Shown here one piece after another: positions 20,126 to 44,159 of a DNA stretch of 44,895 nucleotides; position 1 is the stretch's first letter; every line of letters begins with the position of its first letter. The position numbers were made by a program, and so were the translations under genes. The DNA lies in the sequence record NC_047899.1. The stretch is one strand, 5' to 3'. This DNA is from Escherichia phage VEc3. The notes under the pieces were generated by a model. That model searched no databases. It was given only the letters and a program-made list of their open reading frames with translations, and was not told the origin of the DNA.

Positions 20126-20248
20126 ATGCTTGAGATGATTCTCAAGCCTTCTTCCCCGAAGGTGACTAAGACTCATGAAGAGTTAATCGTTGATGAAGTG
20201 AAGCGTTACATCATGGATTGTGTCAGAGCACAACTGGTGGTCCAATGA
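20126..20248 (+). CDS. Small ORF (40 aa), hypothetical
   Basis: ATG 20126 with AAGGA 6 nt upstream; ends with ATGA overlap into the next gene. Confidence 0.35.
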   Translation: MLEMILKPSSPKVTKTHEELIVDEVKRYIMDCVRAQLVVQ

Positions 20249-20706
20249 TACGTCCAGCTTCCTTCCTAGATATTCCTGAGATTATAAACCTTGGGAATAA
20301 ATATGTGGAAGAGGAAGTCAAGGTTGTAGCCCACCACTCAGCCTCATGGAATGCAGAACAAAGCGCACATAACCTTTGCGCATCTCTTAGTAGAGAAGAT
20401 TTATTCCTATGGGTTGCTGTAGATGAAGGGCGGATTGTAGGGTTCCTGTGGGCTGGCTATCACGAGTTGGCCCCTTGGACACCTGTAAGGGTTGCCTCTG
20501 ACATTCTCTTTTATATTATACCAGAGAAGCGAGGAACCTTACTTGGTATGCGTCTCATCAAAGCCCTAAAGCAATGGGCTAGTGATAATGAATGCTCTGA
20601 GGTTCGCCTGTCTATCGCCTCTGGTATTAATGAAGAACGTGTCGGACGTATGTATAAGCGACTTGGCTTTGAACCGTTTGGCACTGTGTACAACCTGAAG
20701 TTCTAA
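20245..20706 (+). CDS. GNAT-family N-acetyltransferase
   Basis: 153 aa; acetyl-CoA-binding signature in EKRGTLLGMRLIKALKQWA, preceded by GRIVGF strand. Confidence 0.7.
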   Translation: MIRPASFLDIPEIINLGNKYVEEEVKVVAHHSASWNAEQSAHNLCASLSREDLFLWVAVDEGRIVGFLWAGYHELAPWTPVRVASDILFYIIPEKRGTLLGMRLIKALKQWASDNECSEVRLSIASGINEERVGRMYKRLGFEPFGTVYNLKF

Positions 20707-23402: not shown

Positions 23403-23425
23403 ATTTACTGGACACTATAGAAGGG
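23403..23425 (+). promoter_or_regulatory. Phage RNAP promoter for the capsid gene
   Basis: ATTTACTGGACACTATAGAAGGG; +1 G at 23420; transcript begins with hairpin GGGAGA-AATG-TCTCCC, then TAAGGAGG RBS. Confidence 0.75.
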
Positions 23426-23473: not shown

Positions 23474-24679
23474 ATGAGCACCCCGAATAACCTGACCAAC
23501 GTTGCAGTCTCCGCTTCCGGCGAGGTAGACAGCCTTCTCATTGAGAAATTCAATGGCAAGGTAAATGAGCAGTACCTGAAAGGTGAGAACATCATGTCCT
23601 ACTTTGATGTTCAGACTGTTACTGGTACTAACACTGTAAGCAACAAATATTTGGGTGAAACCGAGTTGCAGGTTCTGGCACCGGGCCAGTCTCCGGCTGC
23701 AACCTCTACTCAGGCCGATAAAAACCAACTGGTAATCGATGCCACTGTTATTGCTCGTAACACGGTTGCTCACCTGCATGATGTACAGGGTGACATTGAT
23801 AGCCTGAAGCCGAAGCTGGCTACTAACCAAGCGAAGCAGCTGAAGAAGATGGAAGATGAAATGCTGATTCAGCAGATGCTGCTGGGCGGTATTGTCAACA
23901 CTCAGGTTAAGCGTATTAAGCCGCGTGTTAAAGGTCATGGCTTCTCTGTCAACGTAGAAGTTACAGAAAGGGAAGCACTGGTCAACCCGCAGTATGTAAT
24001 GGCGGCTGTAGAGTTTGCTCTGGAGCAGCAGCTTGAGCAGGAAGTAGACATCTCTGATGTAGCTATCCTGATGCCGTGGCGATACTTCAACGTACTGCGT
24101 GATGCAGACCGTATCGTTGACAAGAGCTACACAATTAGCCAGTCTGGTGCAACCATTCAGGGTTTTGTTCTGTCTTCTTACAACTGCCCTGTTATCCCGT
24201 CTAACCGCTTCCCTAAATTCTCTGCTGGTCAGAAACATCACCTGCTGTCAAATAAAGACAACGGTTATCGTTATGACCCGACTGCAGAAATGAATGGCGC
24301 TATCGCTGTACTGTTCACTGCTGATGCGCTGCTGGTTGGTCGTTCTATTGATGTTACTGGCGATATCTTCTATGAGAAGAAAGAGAAGACCTACTACATT
24401 GATACTTTCATGTCTGAAGGTGCAATCCCTGATCGTTGGGAAGCAGTGTCTGTTGTGACAACTAAGCGTAAATCATCTACTGGTGATGCTGATGGTACTG
24501 ATGGAGCACAGCACACTCAAGTTCTTAACCGTGCACAGCGCAAAGCTGTATACGTCAAGAATGCTGCTCCGGCAGGTGCTGCCGTTGCTGCTAGTCTGTC
24601 TGCTGAAGACTTAGTTGCTGCTGTCCGTTCTGTCATGGCAAATGACATTAAGCAGACTGCAATGAAACCTGCTGAGTAA
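23474..24679 (+). CDS. Major capsid protein
   Basis: 401 aa; strong promoter and RBS, highly biased codon usage, followed by a terminator. Confidence 0.85.
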   Translation: MSTPNNLTNVAVSASGEVDSLLIEKFNGKVNEQYLKGENIMSYFDVQTVTGTNTVSNKYLGETELQVLAPGQSPAATSTQADKNQLVIDATVIARNTVAHLHDVQGDIDSLKPKLATNQAKQLKKMEDEMLIQQMLLGGIVNTQVKRIKPRVKGHGFSVNVEVTEREALVNPQYVMAAVEFALEQQLEQEVDISDVAILMPWRYFNVLRDADRIVDKSYTISQSGATIQGFVLSSYNCPVIPSNRFPKFSAGQKHHLLSNKDNGYRYDPTAEMNGAIAVLFTADALLVGRSIDVTGDIFYEKKEKTYYIDTFMSEGAIPDRWEAVSVVTTKRKSSTGDADGTDGAQHTQVLNRAQRKAVYVKNAAPAGAAVAASLSAEDLVAAVRSVMANDIKQTAMKPAE

Positions 24680-36082: not shown

Positions 36083-36365
36083 ACATGCAGCTACAGAGGA
36101 CGAGGTTGGCATTCTGCATGGTGCTATTACCAAAATCTTCAATAAGAAAGCACAGGCAATACTGGACACTATAGAAGAAGACCCTGATGCAGCATTACAT
36201 TTAGTGTCTGGTAAGGATATTGGTGCGATGTGTAAGTGGGTTCTTGATAACGGCATTACCGCCACACCTGCTGCACAGCAGGAAGAGTCCAAGTTATCTA
36301 AGCGCCTCAAGGCTATCCGAGAGGCATCCAGTGGTAAGATAATTCAGTTTACAAAAGAGGAGTGA
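36066..36365 (+). CDS. Terminase small subunit (gp18-like), start uncertain
   Basis: GTG 36066 with GGAGGG RBS preferred; track ATG 36021 is the alternative; position between holin and terminase large subunit. Confidence 0.45.
   Translation: MSVHNKHAATEDEVGILHGAITKIFNKKAQAILDTIEEDPDAALHLVSGKDIGAMCKWVLDNGITATPAAQQEESKLSKRLKAIREASSGKIIQFTKEE
36157..36179 (+). promoter_or_regulatory. Phage RNAP promoter embedded in the terminase small subunit CDS
   Basis: GGCAATACTGGACACTATAGAAGAAG; +1 G at 36174; encodes ...AILDTIEED. Confidence 0.55.
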
Positions 36366-36366
36366 T

Positions 36367-36810
36367 ATGCATAGATGGTGTGAATCTCAAGGTTATACCA
36401 TCTTACCTTCTGGTGTCATCCTTTCAAAGGGTGGCACCCCTCTCAAACCATTCAAGGCGGGTAGGGGTTATTTAGCAGTTAAAATTAAAAATAAAGAAGG
36501 TAAATGGCGTAATGTCTATGTTCATCAATTAGTGGCTTATAAGTATTTACCTAAAACTAATAATGAAGTAAACCACAAAGACGGCGATAAGCACAACAAT
36601 GATGTTAGCAACTTGGAGTGGGTAACAAGAAGCGAGAATAACTATTTAAAATGCAATGGAAATGATAGGAGTGCCTTAAATAGCTATTTAGCAAGATTAA
36701 AAGATTGCTTCTTGCAAGGTAAGGGTGTAGCAGAAACCGCTAGACTTACTGGTAAAAGTGAACCAAGAGTTTCTTCTCTCTTTAAGGAGTGGCGAAATGG
36801 CAAAGGCTAG
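36367..36810 (+). CDS. HNH homing endonuclease inserted between the terminase genes
   Basis: 147 aa; VNHKDGDKHNNDVSNLEWVTRSENN motif; strongly AT-rich; paralogous in design to the HNH at 6396. Confidence 0.85.
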   Translation: MHRWCESQGYTILPSGVILSKGGTPLKPFKAGRGYLAVKIKNKEGKWRNVYVHQLVAYKYLPKTNNEVNHKDGDKHNNDVSNLEWVTRSENNYLKCNGNDRSALNSYLARLKDCFLQGKGVAETARLTGKSEPRVSSLFKEWRNGKG

Positions 36811-38695
36811 AGAATCACAGGCAGAGGCATTAAAGCGGTGGGAAAACCTTAAAGAACTACAAGACACTTTTAAATATACAGCGGAAGGTTTGCTTCTCTT
36901 TGCAGATACAGTTATTCATAACTTAATTGCAGGCAACCCTCATCTGATTCGTATGCAGGCGGATATCTTGAAGTTCCTATTTTACGGACACAAGTACCGC
37001 CTCATCGAAGCGCCTCGTGGTATCGCTAAGACAACACTATCAGCAATCTATACGGTATTCCGTATTATTCATGAACCGCATAAGCGTATCATGGTTGTGT
37101 CCCAAAACGCCAAGCGAGCAGAGGAAATCGCAGGTTGGGTAGTTAAAATCTTCCGTGGCTTAGACTTTCTTGAGTTTATGCTGCCGGATATCTACGCTGG
37201 GGACCGTGCATCCGTTAAGGCGTTTGAGATTCATTACACCCTACGTGGTAGTGATAAGTCTCCTTCTGTATCCTGTTACTCAATCGAAGCAGGTATGCAG
37301 GGTGCTCGTGCTGATATTATTCTAGCGGATGACGTAGAGTCGATGCAGAATGCTCGTACGGCAGCGGGCCGTGCCTTGCTTGAGGAACTGACTAAGGAGT
37401 TTGAATCTATCAACCAGTTTGGGGATATCATTTACCTTGGTACACCTCAGAACGTAAACTCTATCTACAACAACCTACCTGCTCGTGGTTACTCTGTTCG
37501 TATCTGGACTGCGCGTTACCCTTCAGTAGAGCAAGAGCAATGTTATGGCGACTTCCTTGCACCTATGATTGTTCAAGATATGAAGGACAACCCAGCACTT
37601 CGCTCAGGGTACGGGTTGGATGGTAATAGTGGTGCACCTTGTGCCCCTGAAATGTATGATGATGAAGTCCTGATTGAGAAGGAAATCTCTCAGGGTGCTG
37701 CTAAGTTCCAGCTTCAGTTCATGCTTAACACTCGCATGATGGATGCTGACAGATACCCATTACGCCTGAACAATCTAATCTTCACCTCGTTTGGTACAGA
37801 GGAAGTCCCTGTGATGCCTACGTGGAGTAATGATTCCATAAACATCATTGGTGATGCACCTAAGTACGGTAACAAGCCTACGGATTTCATGTACAGACCT
37901 GTAGCTCGCCCATACGAATGGGGTGCTGTCTCCCGCAAGATTATGTATATTGACCCTGCGGGTGGTGGTAAGAACGGAGATGAGACGGGTGTAGCCATCG
38001 TATTCCTGCACGGCACATTCATTTATGTGTATCAGTGCTTTGGTGTACCTGGCGGATACCGAGAGTCGTCCCTGAATCGCATTGTGCAGGCCGCAAAGCA
38101 GGCGGGTGTTAAAGAGGTATTCATTGAGAAGAACTTTGGTCATGGCGCGTTTGAGGCGGTAATTAAGCCGTACTTTGAACGAGAGTGGCCTGTAACTCTG
38201 GAAGAAGATTACGCCACCGGACAGAAAGAATTGCGTATCATTGAGACGCTGGAGCCGCTCATGGCAGCCCATAGGCTTATCTTCAATGCAGAGATGGTGA
38301 AGTCAGACTTTGAGTCGGTACAGCACTATCCGCTTGAACTACGCATGTCCTACAGTCTTTTCAATCAAATGTCGAACATAACGATTGAGAAGAACAGCCT
38401 ACGGCACGATGACCGCCTAGACGCCCTGTATGGTGCTATACGGCAATTAACTTCTCAGATAGACTATGACGAGGTTACACGGATTAATCGCCTCAGAGCG
38501 CAGGAGATGCGAGATTACATCCATGCTATGAACACACCTCATCTACGCAGGGCAATGCTATATGGGGATTACGGTACTGAGCGAAGAGTGACCAACACTT
38601 CCGTAGCGATGCAGCAGCGAGTTTACGGGCAGAGCTACCGAAATAAATCGGCAAGCAGAAATACACTTTCTGCAAGGATTTCAAGGACTTATTAA
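36797..38695 (+). CDS. Terminase large subunit (gp19-like)
   Basis: Walker A-like GIAKTT, YLGTPQ, FMLN, HDDRLDAL blocks as in T7 gp19; ATG 36797 with AAGGAG RBS preferred over track start 36758. Confidence 0.92.
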   Translation: MAKARESQAEALKRWENLKELQDTFKYTAEGLLLFADTVIHNLIAGNPHLIRMQADILKFLFYGHKYRLIEAPRGIAKTTLSAIYTVFRIIHEPHKRIMVVSQNAKRAEEIAGWVVKIFRGLDFLEFMLPDIYAGDRASVKAFEIHYTLRGSDKSPSVSCYSIEAGMQGARADIILADDVESMQNARTAAGRALLEELTKEFESINQFGDIIYLGTPQNVNSIYNNLPARGYSVRIWTARYPSVEQEQCYGDFLAPMIVQDMKDNPALRSGYGLDGNSGAPCAPEMYDDEVLIEKEISQGAAKFQLQFMLNTRMMDADRYPLRLNNLIFTSFGTEEVPVMPTWSNDSINIIGDAPKYGNKPTDFMYRPVARPYEWGAVSRKIMYIDPAGGGKNGDETGVAIVFLHGTFIYVYQCFGVPGGYRESSLNRIVQAAKQAGVKEVFIEKNFGHGAFEAVIKPYFEREWPVTLEEDYATGQKELRIIETLEPLMAAHRLIFNAEMVKSDFESVQHYPLELRMSYSLFNQMSNITIEKNSLRHDDRLDALYGAIRQLTSQIDYDEVTRINRLRAQEMRDYIHAMNTPHLRRAMLYGDYGTERRVTNTSVAMQQRVYGQSYRNKSASRNTLSARISRTY

Positions 38696-38716
38696 TTACT
38701 GGACACTATAGAAGGA
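38694..38716 (+). promoter_or_regulatory. Phage RNAP promoter (AATTACTGGACACTATAGAAGGA)
   Basis: Consensus core; +1 G at 38711; leader contains hairpin GGGTGTAC-TCCT-GTACACCC. Confidence 0.7.
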
Positions 38717-38860
38717 AGGCCCAGATAATAAGAGAAAATAATAGGTAATATATAGGTTAACCTAGGTTATATAGGTATGCCTTAGTATGGGTGTACTCCT
38801 GTACACCCTATTCATTACTACCTTACTACCTTACTATATTTACATAATAGGAGAGAGACA

Positions 38861-39139
38861 ATGGCTAATGATTATAGTAGTCAACCATTAACAGGTAAGT
38901 CTAAGAGAAAGCAGGTACAACTTGTAAGTGAAGAACTAATGCTTCCGGTAATCAAAAAAGAGGAAGCTAGTAAGAAAAGCAATGTCATTAATGATGCCAC
39001 CAAATCAGGTAAACAGAAAGGGGCCATGGTGTGCCTTGAAGCGGAAGGTGGTGTATTGAAGATTGCTATCGCGGTTGATGGCAAAGAAGATTCAGAGTGG
39101 AAGTTAGTAACAGTGGGAACCACTGTTACCCCAGTTTAA
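38861..39139 (+). CDS. Small protein, paralog A (92 aa)
   Basis: Shares SGKQKGAMV-LE...IA-A...W...TP with the adjacent ORF; strong RBS. Confidence 0.6.
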   Translation: MANDYSSQPLTGKSKRKQVQLVSEELMLPVIKKEEASKKSNVINDATKSGKQKGAMVCLEAEGGVLKIAIAVDGKEDSEWKLVTVGTTVTPV

Positions 39140-39157
39140 GAGAAGGAGGAAGATTAC

Positions 39158-39448
39158 ATGGCTGAATATGGTACTACAGGTTCTGTTACGGGTCAGGCTT
39201 TTAGAGTGAAAGCAGTACAAACTGTTGCAACGGCAATCCCGATGCCTGTTGTTAAAGAAGAAGACCTTAAGAGTAAAGATCACCCTATCAACATCAAACA
39301 TTTATCAGGTAAACAGAAAGGTGCAATGGTTGCTCTTGAGAAAAAGAACACAACCTTACATATTGCTGTTGCACATGGTAGTGAACCAACAGACCCTTGG
39401 TATGTAACTAGCATGGAATCGCTCGCTGTCACTCCAGCAGGTGGATAA
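39158..39448 (+). CDS. Small protein, paralog B (96 aa)
   Basis: Paralogous to 38861-39139; AAGGAGG RBS. Confidence 0.6.
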   Translation: MAEYGTTGSVTGQAFRVKAVQTVATAIPMPVVKEEDLKSKDHPINIKHLSGKQKGAMVALEKKNTTLHIAVAHGSEPTDPWYVTSMESLAVTPAGG

Positions 39449-39450
39449 TA

Positions 39451-39795
39451 ATGCTTAACAAATACTTCAAGCGCCGGGAGTTCGCTTGCCGTTGTGGGTG
39501 CGGTACATCCACTGTTGATGCTGAATTACTACAGGTAGTCACAGATGTGCGTGAGCACTTTGGTTCTCCTGTAGTTATCACTTCGGGGCACCGCTGTGCT
39601 AAGCATAATGCTAATGTAGGAGGGGCTAAGAACTCCATGCATCTTACTGGTAAGGCTGCTGACATTAAGGTGTCTGGTGTTGGCCCAATGGAGGTACGTG
39701 CATACCTCTGCAATAAATACCATGATAAGTACGGTATTGGTGCTTATCCTACTTTTACCCATATCGACGTTAGAGATAACAAAGCAAGATGGTAA
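39451..39795 (+). CDS. Endolysin, zinc peptidase M15 family
   Basis: 114 aa; SGHRCAKHN...SMHLTGKAADI...H-D pattern typical of M15 zinc peptidases. Confidence 0.8.
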   Translation: MLNKYFKRREFACRCGCGTSTVDAELLQVVTDVREHFGSPVVITSGHRCAKHNANVGGAKNSMHLTGKAADIKVSGVGPMEVRAYLCNKYHDKYGIGAYPTFTHIDVRDNKARW

Positions 39796-40392: not shown

Positions 40393-40471
40393 ATAAGATA
40401 GCGCCGTTCTTTTGAGCGGCCTATTACTAGCCAATCTTCATAGGGAGGGTTGGAAAGTAATAGGAGATAGC

Positions 40472-42370
40472 ATGGCTAAATTAACCAAACCTAATACTGA
40501 AGGAATCTTGCATAAAGGACAATCTTTGTATGAGTACCTTGATGCGAGAGTTTTAACATCAAAGCCGTTTGGTGCTGCAGGTGACGCCACTACTGATGAT
40601 ACGAAGGTTATAGCTGCTTCATTAAACTCTCAGAAAGCTGTCACAGTCTCAGATGGTGTATTCTCTAGCTCTGGTATTAATAGTAATTACTGTAACTTAG
40701 ACGGTAGAGGTAGTGGCGTGCTAAGTCACCGTTCCAGTACAGGTAACTACTTAGTATTTAACAATCTACGTGCAGGTCGCTTAAGTAATATTACGGTAGA
40801 AAGTAATAAGGCGACTGATACAACTCAGGGACAGCAGGTATCTCTTGCTGGTGGAAGTGATGTTACTGTAAGTGACGTTAACTTCTCAAACGTTAAAGGT
40901 ACTGGTTTCAGTTTAATCGCATACCCTAATGATGCGCCACCTGATGGACTTATGATTAAAGGCATTCGAGGTAGCTATTCAGGCTATGCTACTAATAAGG
41001 CAGCCGGATGCGTACTTGCTGACTCCTCAGTTAACTCCCTCATAGATAACGTCATTGCTAAGAACTACCCTCGGTTCGGAGCAGTAGAGTTGAAAGGTAC
41101 AGCCAGTTACAACATAGTCAGTAATGTTATAGGGGCAGATTGCCAGCATGTAACTTACAACGGCACTGAAGGGCCAATAGCTCCTTCTAATAACCTTATC
41201 AAGGGGGTGATGGCTAATAACCCTAAGTATGCAGCGGTTGTTGCAGGCAAAGGAAGTACGAACTTAATCTCAGACGTGCTAGTAGATTACTCAACTTCTG
41301 ATGCTAGGCAGGCTCATGGTGTTACCGTAGAAGGGTCTGATAACGTCATAAATAATGTGCTTATGTCAGGATGTGATGGTACTAACTCTTTAGGACAAGT
41401 GCAGACTGCTACAATTGCACGCTTTATAGGTACAGCTAATAACAACTATGCGTCTGTATTTCCTAGCTACAGTGCTACAGGTGTTATTACTTTCGAATCC
41501 GGCTCTACCCGTAACTTCGTAGAGGTAAAGCACCCTGGCAGGAGAAACGACCTTCTCAGTTCTGCTAGTACTATTGACGGTGCAGCTACTATTGACGGCA
41601 CTAGTAATAGTAACGTAGTGCACGCACCTGCCTTAGGGCAGTACATAGGTAGTATGTCAGGTAGGTTCGAATGGCGGATTAAGTCCATGTCACTCCCTTC
41701 AGGCGTTCTTACTTCTGCTGATAAGTACAGAATGCTTGGAGATGGTGCTGTGTCATTAGCTGTAGGTGGGGGCACTTCTTCTCAAGTTCGCCTATTTACT
41801 TCTGGTGGTACTTCTCGGACAGTGTCCCTCACCAACGGTAACGTGCGTCTTTCTACCAGTAGCACAGGCTTTTTGCAGTTAGGTGCTGATGCAATGACCC
41901 CAGACAGTACTGGTACATACGCATTAGGTTCCGCCAGTCGAGCATGGTCTGGCGGTTTTACTCAAGCAGCATTCACTGTTACCTCAGATGCTCGGTGTAA
42001 AACAGAACCTCTTACTATCTCAGATGCCTTACTGGATGCTTGGTCTGAAGTTGACTTTGTGCAGTTTCAGTATTTGGATCGTGTTGAGGAGAAGGGTGCA
42101 GACTCAGCTAGATGGCACTTTGGCATCATCGCTCAGCGAGCTAAGGAGGCTTTCGAACGTCACGGTATAGATGCACATCGCTATGGCTTCTTGTGCTTCG
42201 ACAGTTGGGATGATGTATACGAGGAAGATGCCAATGGCTCTCGTAAACTGATTACACCAGCAGGTTCCCGCTACGGTATTCGTTACGAGGAAGTACTGAT
42301 ATTAGAGGCTGCGTTGATGCGGCGGACTATTAAGCGTATGCAGGAAGCACTAGCTGCCCTTCCTAAGTAA
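40472..42370 (+). CDS. Tailspike 1 with C-terminal intramolecular chaperone domain; probable capsule depolymerase
   Basis: 632 aa from ATG 40472 (AGGAG RBS); Ser/Thr/Gly/Asn-rich beta-helix-like body; C-terminal SDARCK...WHFGIIAQRAKEAF...GIRYEEVLILEA matches the self-cleaving chaperone module of endosialidase/K5-lyase tailspikes (by recall). Confidence 0.8.
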   Translation: MAKLTKPNTEGILHKGQSLYEYLDARVLTSKPFGAAGDATTDDTKVIAASLNSQKAVTVSDGVFSSSGINSNYCNLDGRGSGVLSHRSSTGNYLVFNNLRAGRLSNITVESNKATDTTQGQQVSLAGGSDVTVSDVNFSNVKGTGFSLIAYPNDAPPDGLMIKGIRGSYSGYATNKAAGCVLADSSVNSLIDNVIAKNYPRFGAVELKGTASYNIVSNVIGADCQHVTYNGTEGPIAPSNNLIKGVMANNPKYAAVVAGKGSTNLISDVLVDYSTSDARQAHGVTVEGSDNVINNVLMSGCDGTNSLGQVQTATIARFIGTANNNYASVFPSYSATGVITFESGSTRNFVEVKHPGRRNDLLSSASTIDGAATIDGTSNSNVVHAPALGQYIGSMSGRFEWRIKSMSLPSGVLTSADKYRMLGDGAVSLAVGGGTSSQVRLFTSGGTSRTVSLTNGNVRLSTSSTGFLQLGADAMTPDSTGTYALGSASRAWSGGFTQAAFTVTSDARCKTEPLTISDALLDAWSEVDFVQFQYLDRVEEKGADSARWHFGIIAQRAKEAFERHGIDAHRYGFLCFDSWDDVYEEDANGSRKLITPAGSRYGIRYEEVLILEAALMRRTIKRMQEALAALPK

Positions 42371-42455: not shown

Positions 42456-44159
42456 ATGCTTCAAAGATTAGGCTCCAAATTAGTCTCATCTAAAGTTTCA
42501 CACTATGGTGTTTCTAGGGTACTATCAGATAAACTAGATGAAATAGTTACACCATTAGATATTAATAGTGGCAATTCATTAGTTCAAGCTATGGCTGCAT
42601 CTGGTAATAGGTTCTCCGTGTTTAACTCAACAGATACCTTCAAGATTACAGTAGGCGATGGTGGAGACTATTCAACTTTGTACGAAGCCATAGAGGGTGC
42701 TTGCAAAATGCGACCTACCTATAAAGAAGGTAAGAGCTATTGTGAAATCTCTCTTAAAAGAGGCTTTATATTAAGAGAGCAATTGGAGTTCACGGGAGGT
42801 TTTGACTTATCTTGGATTAAGATAACATCTGAAGATGAAGTAGTGTATGCAGATACTTCGTCCTTTACAAAGAAAGTAAGACATTACTATGAGTATAAGT
42901 ACCTGTTCCTATTTACAGAAGGTACAAAGAGTCCTATCTTCTCTATATTGATTCAAGAAAACAGAGATGATAGTGATGTTTGTGCCTTTATGATTACAAG
43001 GTTTGCAGAGCTTAATTTCTGGCCTGGATCTGGTGCACGTAAGTTTTATGTGGGTGTAGATTCTCAGTTTGGATGCTGGATTAAAGGCTACCACACTGGG
43101 TCTGCACCGGACAAGACTGCTGTAGATAAATATCAACCACCGGGGTACTTCCTCTGCGACTTTTCTGATAGCAGATATAATGCCATCATGGCTTACTCTA
43201 GTTATGTACACCTTCCTTGTAGTAAGTTTGATAGAAGTGGTAATAGTTTTAATCAACCCTCTGTTACATGTATTTATAATACAGTTGCACACTTTCAAGG
43301 ATCTTCTGCCAAAGATTGCTACATAGGTTGGAATATACGATATGGAGCACATGTTAACATGCGAGATCATCAAACTACCAACTGTACATACAGAGGTCTT
43401 ACTTGTATACATGGAGTCTTTGTAGATGCAAGACGTCACGATGTGGAAGGGACAGACATACCGACAAGCGGTAAGGTATTAAATCCAGAAGAGCAGAATG
43501 GCTTCTATGGGTGTTTAACAGGTGTGCAAGTAGACGGTGCAACTATTGTAGATCTAGCAGGGAATGATATGCGAAACTGTGGTACTACTATTAAATGCGA
43601 TAACGGTGCTGTGGTTTCAGCTAAAGGATTGGACGTATCTGGAGCTAAGACTATGGTTTTCCAATGCCAAGGTGGCTCAACTGTAGCTTGTCCTAGGTTA
43701 TGGGCAGACAACATCAAACAATTATGTGTGTTACGTTATGACTCAAAAGTAACAAGCCGTTGGGCTACAATAACTACACATACTAAGTTTGAGCAGCTTA
43801 GTCGTTTCTGTGATGCAGATATGTCAAGTCATTTAACTCTATCTGACTCCAAGATAGATGGAGATATAGCATTCTTTGCTGGTAACTCATCTACTATCTC
43901 TATCTCTGGTTCAAGTACGGTTAAAGTAAGAGCCTTTAGATCATTTACTGGTTCTAAGGTTACTCTATCTGGTATTACTTATAACCCTGAGTATGCTAAG
44001 GCTGTATCACCAGAAGAACTACAATTTAGGATTTCTCAAGGAGGGATTATAGCAATGAACCCTATCACCATCTCCGATGGGTCTGTGCCTATCTTGTCTA
44101 AACCACGTAATACCTTATCAGATGCAGGTATTATCTTCTCTGCGGTAGGTAATATCTGA
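42456..44159 (+). CDS. Tailspike 2 / second receptor-binding protein, Cys-rich, AT-rich
   Basis: 567 aa; AAGGAGG RBS; terminal position as in two-tailspike SP6/K1-5-like phages; no domain recognised. Confidence 0.55.
   Translation: MLQRLGSKLVSSKVSHYGVSRVLSDKLDEIVTPLDINSGNSLVQAMAASGNRFSVFNSTDTFKITVGDGGDYSTLYEAIEGACKMRPTYKEGKSYCEISLKRGFILREQLEFTGGFDLSWIKITSEDEVVYADTSSFTKKVRHYYEYKYLFLFTEGTKSPIFSILIQENRDDSDVCAFMITRFAELNFWPGSGARKFYVGVDSQFGCWIKGYHTGSAPDKTAVDKYQPPGYFLCDFSDSRYNAIMAYSSYVHLPCSKFDRSGNSFNQPSVTCIYNTVAHFQGSSAKDCYIGWNIRYGAHVNMRDHQTTNCTYRGLTCIHGVFVDARRHDVEGTDIPTSGKVLNPEEQNGFYGCLTGVQVDGATIVDLAGNDMRNCGTTIKCDNGAVVSAKGLDVSGAKTMVFQCQGGSTVACPRLWADNIKQLCVLRYDSKVTSRWATITTHTKFEQLSRFCDADMSSHLTLSDSKIDGDIAFFAGNSSTISISGSSTVKVRAFRSFTGSKVTLSGITYNPEYAKAVSPEELQFRISQGGIIAMNPITISDGSVPILSKPRNTLSDAGIIFSAVGNI

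Follow-up and report, generated by a model that had tools for sequence, protein, structure and literature searches.

Two small late genes of Escherichia phage VEc3, listed in databases as acetyl-CoA acetyltransferases, probably encode virion proteins of the capsid exterior

Two adjacent genes lying between the large terminase and the endolysin genes of Escherichia phage VEc3 probably encode small late structural proteins of the virion, with the outside of the capsid as their most likely place, and the enzyme name under which such proteins are stored in the databases does not fit them. The sequence strongly supports late transcription of the pair from a phage-polymerase promoter of its own, as for the major capsid and tailspike genes. 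The DNA that was analysed, referred to here as the window, is the whole stretch of 44,895 nucleotides (NC_047899.1), and it covers nearly the whole genome of a coliphage of the K1-5/K1E type (genus Vectrevirus, SP6 supergroup). Over the 900 bases surrounding the gene pair, identity to many K1-5/K1E-type phages, K1-5 included, is 93-96%, and the pair itself is 94% identical in DNA to K1-5 gp41/gp42, which identifies the two sets as orthologues. The features of the locus are the following:

36758-38695: large terminase gene, upstream of the pair
38698..38716, + strand: SP6/K1-5-type phage RNA polymerase late promoter, an exact match to ACTGGACACTATAGAAGGA
38772..38785, + strand: leader motif TAGGTATGCCTTAG, whose exact match is unique in the window
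38789..38808, + strand: leader stem-loop GGGTGTAC-TCCT-GTACACCC, with an 8-bp stem and a 4-nt loop, followed by a pyrimidine-rich tract
38849..38853, + strand: ribosome-binding site for the first gene (AGGAG), separated by 7 nt from its ATG at 38861
38861..39139, + strand: class A paralogue of 92 aa, one copy of a module of about 85 aa; orthologue of K1-5 gp41, Kp7 gp45 and SP6 gp42
39143..39149, + strand: ribosome-binding site for the second gene (AAGGAGG), separated by 8 nt from its ATG at 39158
39158..39448, + strand: class B paralogue of 96 aa, one copy of the same module; orthologue of K1-5 gp42, PK1A2 gp50 and SP6 gp43
39451-39795: Peptidase_M15_3 endolysin gene (E=5e-33), downstream of the pair, starting 2 nt beyond the stop codon of the second gene

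The original prediction had described a tandem pair of open reading frames of 92 and 96 aa, placed between terminase and endolysin, each with a strong ribosome-binding site, and the coordinates, neighbours and ribosome-binding sites given above all agree with it. It had also proposed that the two proteins are paralogues with a common core, and this was confirmed by BLASTP of one against the other, which gave 38% identity over the full length (E=3e-16). The shared core reads SGKQKGAMV...IA.A...W...TP, and an alignment of 40 members, drawn from the two classes of paralogue, has 14 invariant columns, among them T-G, R, K, P, N, S-G-K-Q, A and W. A six-frame profile scan of the whole window found no third copy or remnant of the module beyond these two.

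Some neighbouring genes of the window are recorded here in their own right. Immediately upstream of the large terminase, and running into the start of that gene, is an HNH endonuclease ORF of 147 aa (36367-36810; PHROG 59, E=1e-29), with a phage promoter ahead of it at 36161; the annotated stretch of K1-5 shows no gene at this place. On the other side, two tailspike genes were located at 40412-42370 and 42456-44159. The first is matched to the K5-lyase-type spike of K1-5 and LL11 by inference only. The second, of 567 aa (PHROG 5662), is far shorter than the gene of K1-5 gp47 (2436 nt), and thus the second receptor-binding protein of VEc3 is probably unlike that of K1-5.

The promoter of the pair, which had been placed at 38694, is real, with an exact copy of the consensus at 38698-38716. 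Eight such sites occur in the window, compared with 0.02 expected by chance, and those at 23407, 38698 and 40374 stand directly ahead of the major capsid gene, the gene pair and the first tailspike gene, respectively. If the promoter works like that of SP6, transcripts would begin near G38711. A promoter of the same type, in a lineage-specific form, is found at the same place in K1-5, LL11, PK1A2, SP6, PP1, Kp7 and the contig L007; where a relative has a polymerase of distinct specificity, the promoter at this position is that relative's own version.

Between promoter and first gene, a motif nearly identical to that of VEc3, TAGGTAT(G/T)CC(C/T)TAG, stands directly upstream of the hairpin in K1-5, Kp7, L006, L007, SP6 and PP1. 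It is kept across genera despite diverged flanking leader sequence (L001, L006, L007, L008, L011 and L013). A perfect short stem-loop is found at the same leader position in K1-5, Kp7, L007, PP1 and SP6, and the stem sequences differ. In a small alignment of six sequences, compensatory changes affect 4 of the 8 pairs and 78.6% of the cells are paired, compared with at most 54% in slid controls. A structured leader hairpin had been predicted, and the hairpin itself is a conserved element; the leader as a whole, however, folds no better than shuffled sequence (z=0.15), and an Rfam search of the leader gave nothing near the gathering score. Transcript processing, stabilisation and partial termination are candidate roles of the hairpin.

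According to the original prediction, no family was recognisable for the two proteins. This was not borne out, since PHROG 2725 matches both, under a wrong name (E=3.7e-37 for the 92-aa and E=1.8e-44 for the 96-aa protein); the A2 family profile matches them too (E=1.2e-25 and 5e-32), and about 100 homologues were found for each. Many RefSeq records, as well as PHROG 2725, name these proteins acetyl-CoA acetyltransferase, and the gene table of UAB_Phi78 applies this label to a 95-aa orthologue with no evidence stated (PMC4837284). That the window proteins are in fact acetyl-CoA acetyltransferases (thiolases) is vanishingly improbable, the database label being the one argument for it. Thiolases have about 390 residues, and the window proteins only 92 and 96; Pfam returned no family at E<=1 for either of them, and the sequence search against the PDB gave no match better than E=1.5. 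Because of this length, and the lack of both a Pfam family and a PDB sequence relative, the two proteins cannot be thiolases, and this identity was ruled out for practical purposes. The relatives and fusion partners of the proteins, moreover, are structural. The window does contain a real GNAT-type acetyltransferase-like ORF, at 20218-20706 upstream of the portal gene (PHROG 1249, E=5e-54), which is unrelated to the misnamed pair.

The most direct evidence for a place in the virion comes from Klebsiella phage Kp7, which carries three paralogues, gp45, gp46 and gp47, in the same terminase-to-endolysin slot. The virion evidence for Kp7 consists of a GenBank label and of one sentence in a preprint (bioRxiv 10.1101/2024.05.19.594906), in which "minor capsid proteins (gp32, gp45, gp46, and gp47)" are named among the SDS-PAGE bands of purified virions that mass spectrometry identified. 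In GenBank, gp45-47 are named "minor capsid protein" (twice) and "minor capsid protein with Ig-domain". The Ig domain of Kp7 gp47 shares 44% identity with that of T5 pb10 (E=2e-21). In the collection of papers that was searched, nothing on virion proteomics of SP6, K1E or K1-5 turned up, nor was any experiment on VEc3 or K1-5 found.

The capsid structure 7y3t in the PDB was taken as that of Kp7 because of a match to the major capsid protein of Kp7 along all 363 residues (E=2e-239). It contains seven major-capsid chains, none of them matching gp45-47, and no chain elsewhere in the PDB matches these proteins either. Should they sit on the lattice, they were left out of the model. Their absence from 7y3t would fit a symmetry-mismatched or flexible site on the lattice, and equally a site elsewhere. 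With respect to the major capsid protein itself, it was observed that the window ORF (23474-24679) has 401 aa and aligns with residues 1-362 of the 363-aa protein of 7y3t; its C-terminal extension of about 39 aa may belong to a longer, minor form of the capsid protein comparable to 10B of T7.

The wider family gives a second line of evidence. Its module of about 85 aa has an extended arm at the N-terminus, a pair of short helices and a small beta unit of four strands, and bears the invariant signature N...SGK..G...A.G...W...TP. A search of 1.8 billion representative proteins, with a profile built from the two paralogues, retrieved 223 relatives. In a set of 144 representative relatives, 84 are single modules of 80-105 aa, and among the 44 multi-repeat proteins 42 have exactly three tandem repeats, two have two and none has more than three; in about 20 relatives the module or modules are N-terminal to another domain. 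Four arrangements of the module are thus seen: a lone copy, two or three genes in tandem in the slot, three repeats in one protein, and the module in front of another domain. The partners include an Ig domain (P0274, P0345), a knob of the Sf6 tail-needle type, PF16532 (P0270), and a collagen-like Gly-X-Y run (L009), and in gp63 of Aeromonas phage Tola the module (E=5.5e-20) is followed by a head-fibre segment of the phi29/crAss001 type. One contig carries a three-repeat protein followed by a collagen-tailed copy, and another carries two successive three-repeat proteins; most of the metagenomic contigs with three-repeat proteins are shorter than 3 kb, so their gene context is limited. A word-indexed protein search with a divergent alignment returned only 15 proteins, three of them on useful contigs. 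The protein P0328 (794 aa, eight Big_7 Ig repeats) owed its score of E=7e-8 against the family profile to weak matches in eight repeats and was set aside as a false positive. In the T4-like phage RB43 (L010, 4929-5630), a lone + strand gene for an Sf6-type knob protein (ORF128w) is found among - strand genes; the N-terminal part of ORF128w aligns to part of the anchor region by tblastn, below the profile threshold.

The number of module genes between terminase and endolysin ranges from one to three in SP6-like genomes and contigs. Two are present in VEc3 (A and B); a third, whose product often bears an Ig or other domain at its C-terminus, is found in Kp7, PK1A2, PP1 and SP6 and in several metagenomic relatives. 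The lengths of the products, in gene order, are:

L005: 92 / 87 / 178 aa
L006 and Kp7: 88 / 88 / 178 aa
L007: 93 / 94 / 236 aa
PP1: 96 / 92 / 93 aa
PK1A2 (same genus as VEc3): 92 / 95 / 225 aa
SP6: 99 / 99 / 81 aa

In a rough neighbour-joining tree, the first genes of all slot phages, including gp41, form class A, and most second genes, including gp42, form class B. Since the classes group across phages, the duplication is old and both copies have been retained, and the clustering of each class across genera argues for non-redundant roles. The third gene of SP6, gp44 (L011, 2998-3433; 81 aa), covers the first two thirds of the module only and is followed by a 55-aa ORF, gp45; together they look like a truncated or frameshifted class C gene. 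In the slot of the Gajwadongvirus type, one bare module is accompanied by a separate accessory protein, which in ECBP5 (L015, 1836-2738) is a knob protein lacking the module and in Tola (L018, 1471-2779) a head-fibre-like protein that carries it. As the accessory proteins of ECBP5 and Tola differ, the slot can be regarded as a swappable accessory cassette.

Structure prediction was informative for the fused form of the module. AlphaFold2 gave a poor model of a single copy, gp42 (pLDDT 65), for which Foldseek against the PDB returned nothing below E=0.7. For a three-repeat member, modelled from an alignment of 38 relatives, the pLDDT was 86.6 and the pTM 0.78, with 187 residues above 90 and with two short helices and four short strands predicted in each repeat. 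Because of the pTM of 0.78, the mutual arrangement of the three domains is predicted with confidence, and pTM is the sole basis for calling this arrangement compact. The compact model has no fold match in the PDB, and Foldseek against viral models returned uncharacterised family members only. Nor did the family profile or Kp7 gp45, used as queries for PDB sequences, retrieve anything meaningful. The profile and structure search suggested with the original prediction has thus been run, with PHROG 2725 as the family found and no fold relative in the PDB; judging from the model, the anchor fold of this family appears to have no solved relative.

Taken with the Kp7 data, these observations suggest how the proteins may work. 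The module would act as a three-fold unit, forming a trimer when encoded by separate genes and a single-chain pseudo-trimer when three copies are fused; hints of three-fold organisation are also seen in the three tandem genes of SP6-like contigs and in the fusion to trimeric modules. It would dock to the virion surface, and the outward domains of the relatives (Ig, knob, collagen-like fibre or head-fibre segment) would ride on it. Since VEc3 has the bare classes A and B but lacks a class C gene that carries a display domain, the homo- or heterotrimers formed by its proteins would decorate the head with nothing displayed on them. As the number of gene copies varies between one, two and three, an obligate heterotrimer is not required. 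In a more specific form, which is possible and put forward tentatively, the module would be an obligately three-fold capsid docking socket of SP6-type phages, of which K1-5-type phages keep a bare A/B heterotrimer at a symmetry-mismatched site, for instance the hexamer centre. A socket at such a site would explain why these proteins are not seen in the icosahedrally averaged capsid model of Kp7.

Several known systems can be compared with this proposal. Kp7 gp45-47, K1-5/K1E gp41/gp42 and SP6 gp42-44 belong to the same family and have the same slot and the same arrangement of promoter and leader as the VEc3 pair. In the third paralogue of relatives, and in that one only, an N-terminal anchor is combined with a C-terminal Ig domain, similarly to the decoration proteins of the T5 pb10 and T4 Hoc type; unlike these, the window proteins have no Ig domain and consist of the anchor module alone. 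This module has no detectable homology to the N-terminal capsid-binding domain of pb10 (hhalign against T5-type pb10, probability 0.1%). Furthermore, pb10 binds hexamer centres as a monomer, whereas the family of the window proteins bears a three-fold signature. Small late trimers on the capsid exterior, as proposed for the window pair, are represented by phi29 gp8.5, crAss001 gp21, the collagen-like SPP1 gp12, lambda gpD, T4 Soc and phage L Dec, and relatives of the window proteins carry head-fibre segments of the phi29/crAss001 type or collagen-like repeats. The window family shares no fold with a solved member of the gpD, Soc, Dec or phi29 gp8.5 groups.

The capsid is not the only part of the virion on which such proteins could sit. 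Tails and necks also bear knob, Ig and collagen-like domains: the pb10-type Ig domain is present in neck-whisker and tail proteins, and some of the Ig relatives are neck whiskers or tail-tube proteins. In this family the module is fused to a tail-needle knob and precedes collagen repeats that resemble those of tail fibres, its structural neighbours in BFVD include entries labelled tail fibre, pectate lyase and SGNH esterase, the gene pair is close to the tailspike genes, and the Kp7 capsid model has no such chain. That the proteins are whisker-like or tailspike-associated parts of the neck or tail, off the capsid lattice, is nevertheless rather unlikely, given that the laboratory behind the Kp7 capsid and tail-fibre structures labels these proteins as capsid and not as tail, that one fusion partner is specifically a head-fibre segment, and that, among the Ig relatives whose structure is solved and whose site is known, the capsid decoration protein of T5 is the nearest.

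It is very unlikely that the pair encodes non-structural late proteins acting in lysis timing or in a block of superinfection or host defence. Orthologues were found in purified virions, and fusions to Ig, knob, collagen-like and head-fibre domains would make no sense for a cytoplasmic regulator. Holins, antiholins and spanins have a transmembrane segment or a lipoprotein signal, and neither window protein has a transmembrane segment, a signal peptide or a lipobox; for this reason the link to lysis comes down to position, directly upstream of the endolysin gene. Even this neighbourhood is variable, since module genes are retained in the slot beside other endolysin types, namely a lysozyme in L005 and a transglycosylase in Tola and Reminis. 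Among the roles offered by the original prediction, those of lysis regulator and superinfection-exclusion factor therefore find no support, and that of virion decoration protein gains it from the presence of Kp7 gp45/46/47 in purified virions and from the fusions to decoration and head-fibre domains.

The gene pair has long been catalogued, as gp41/42 in K1-5 and with its duplication noted in the LL11 record, and one group calls the relatives minor capsid proteins. What is new here is the correction of the label, the pattern of exactly three repeats, the ancient A and B classes, the plug-in domains, and a confident model with no known fold relative. A wrong enzyme name has spread through RefSeq and PHROG for SP6/K1-5-type phages, many of which are in therapy development, and the evidence supports renaming these products small virion (minor capsid) proteins. 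As surface proteins of this kind can affect the stability of the particle and its adhesion to mucus and cell surfaces, they bear on the behaviour of phages in their hosts. Its natural combinations with Ig, knob, collagen-like and head-fibre modules make the anchor a candidate site for display on these phages. If the module is indeed a three-fold docking socket of the capsid, it would constitute a new family of decoration anchors and would offer a ready display platform on therapeutic K1/K5 coliphages.
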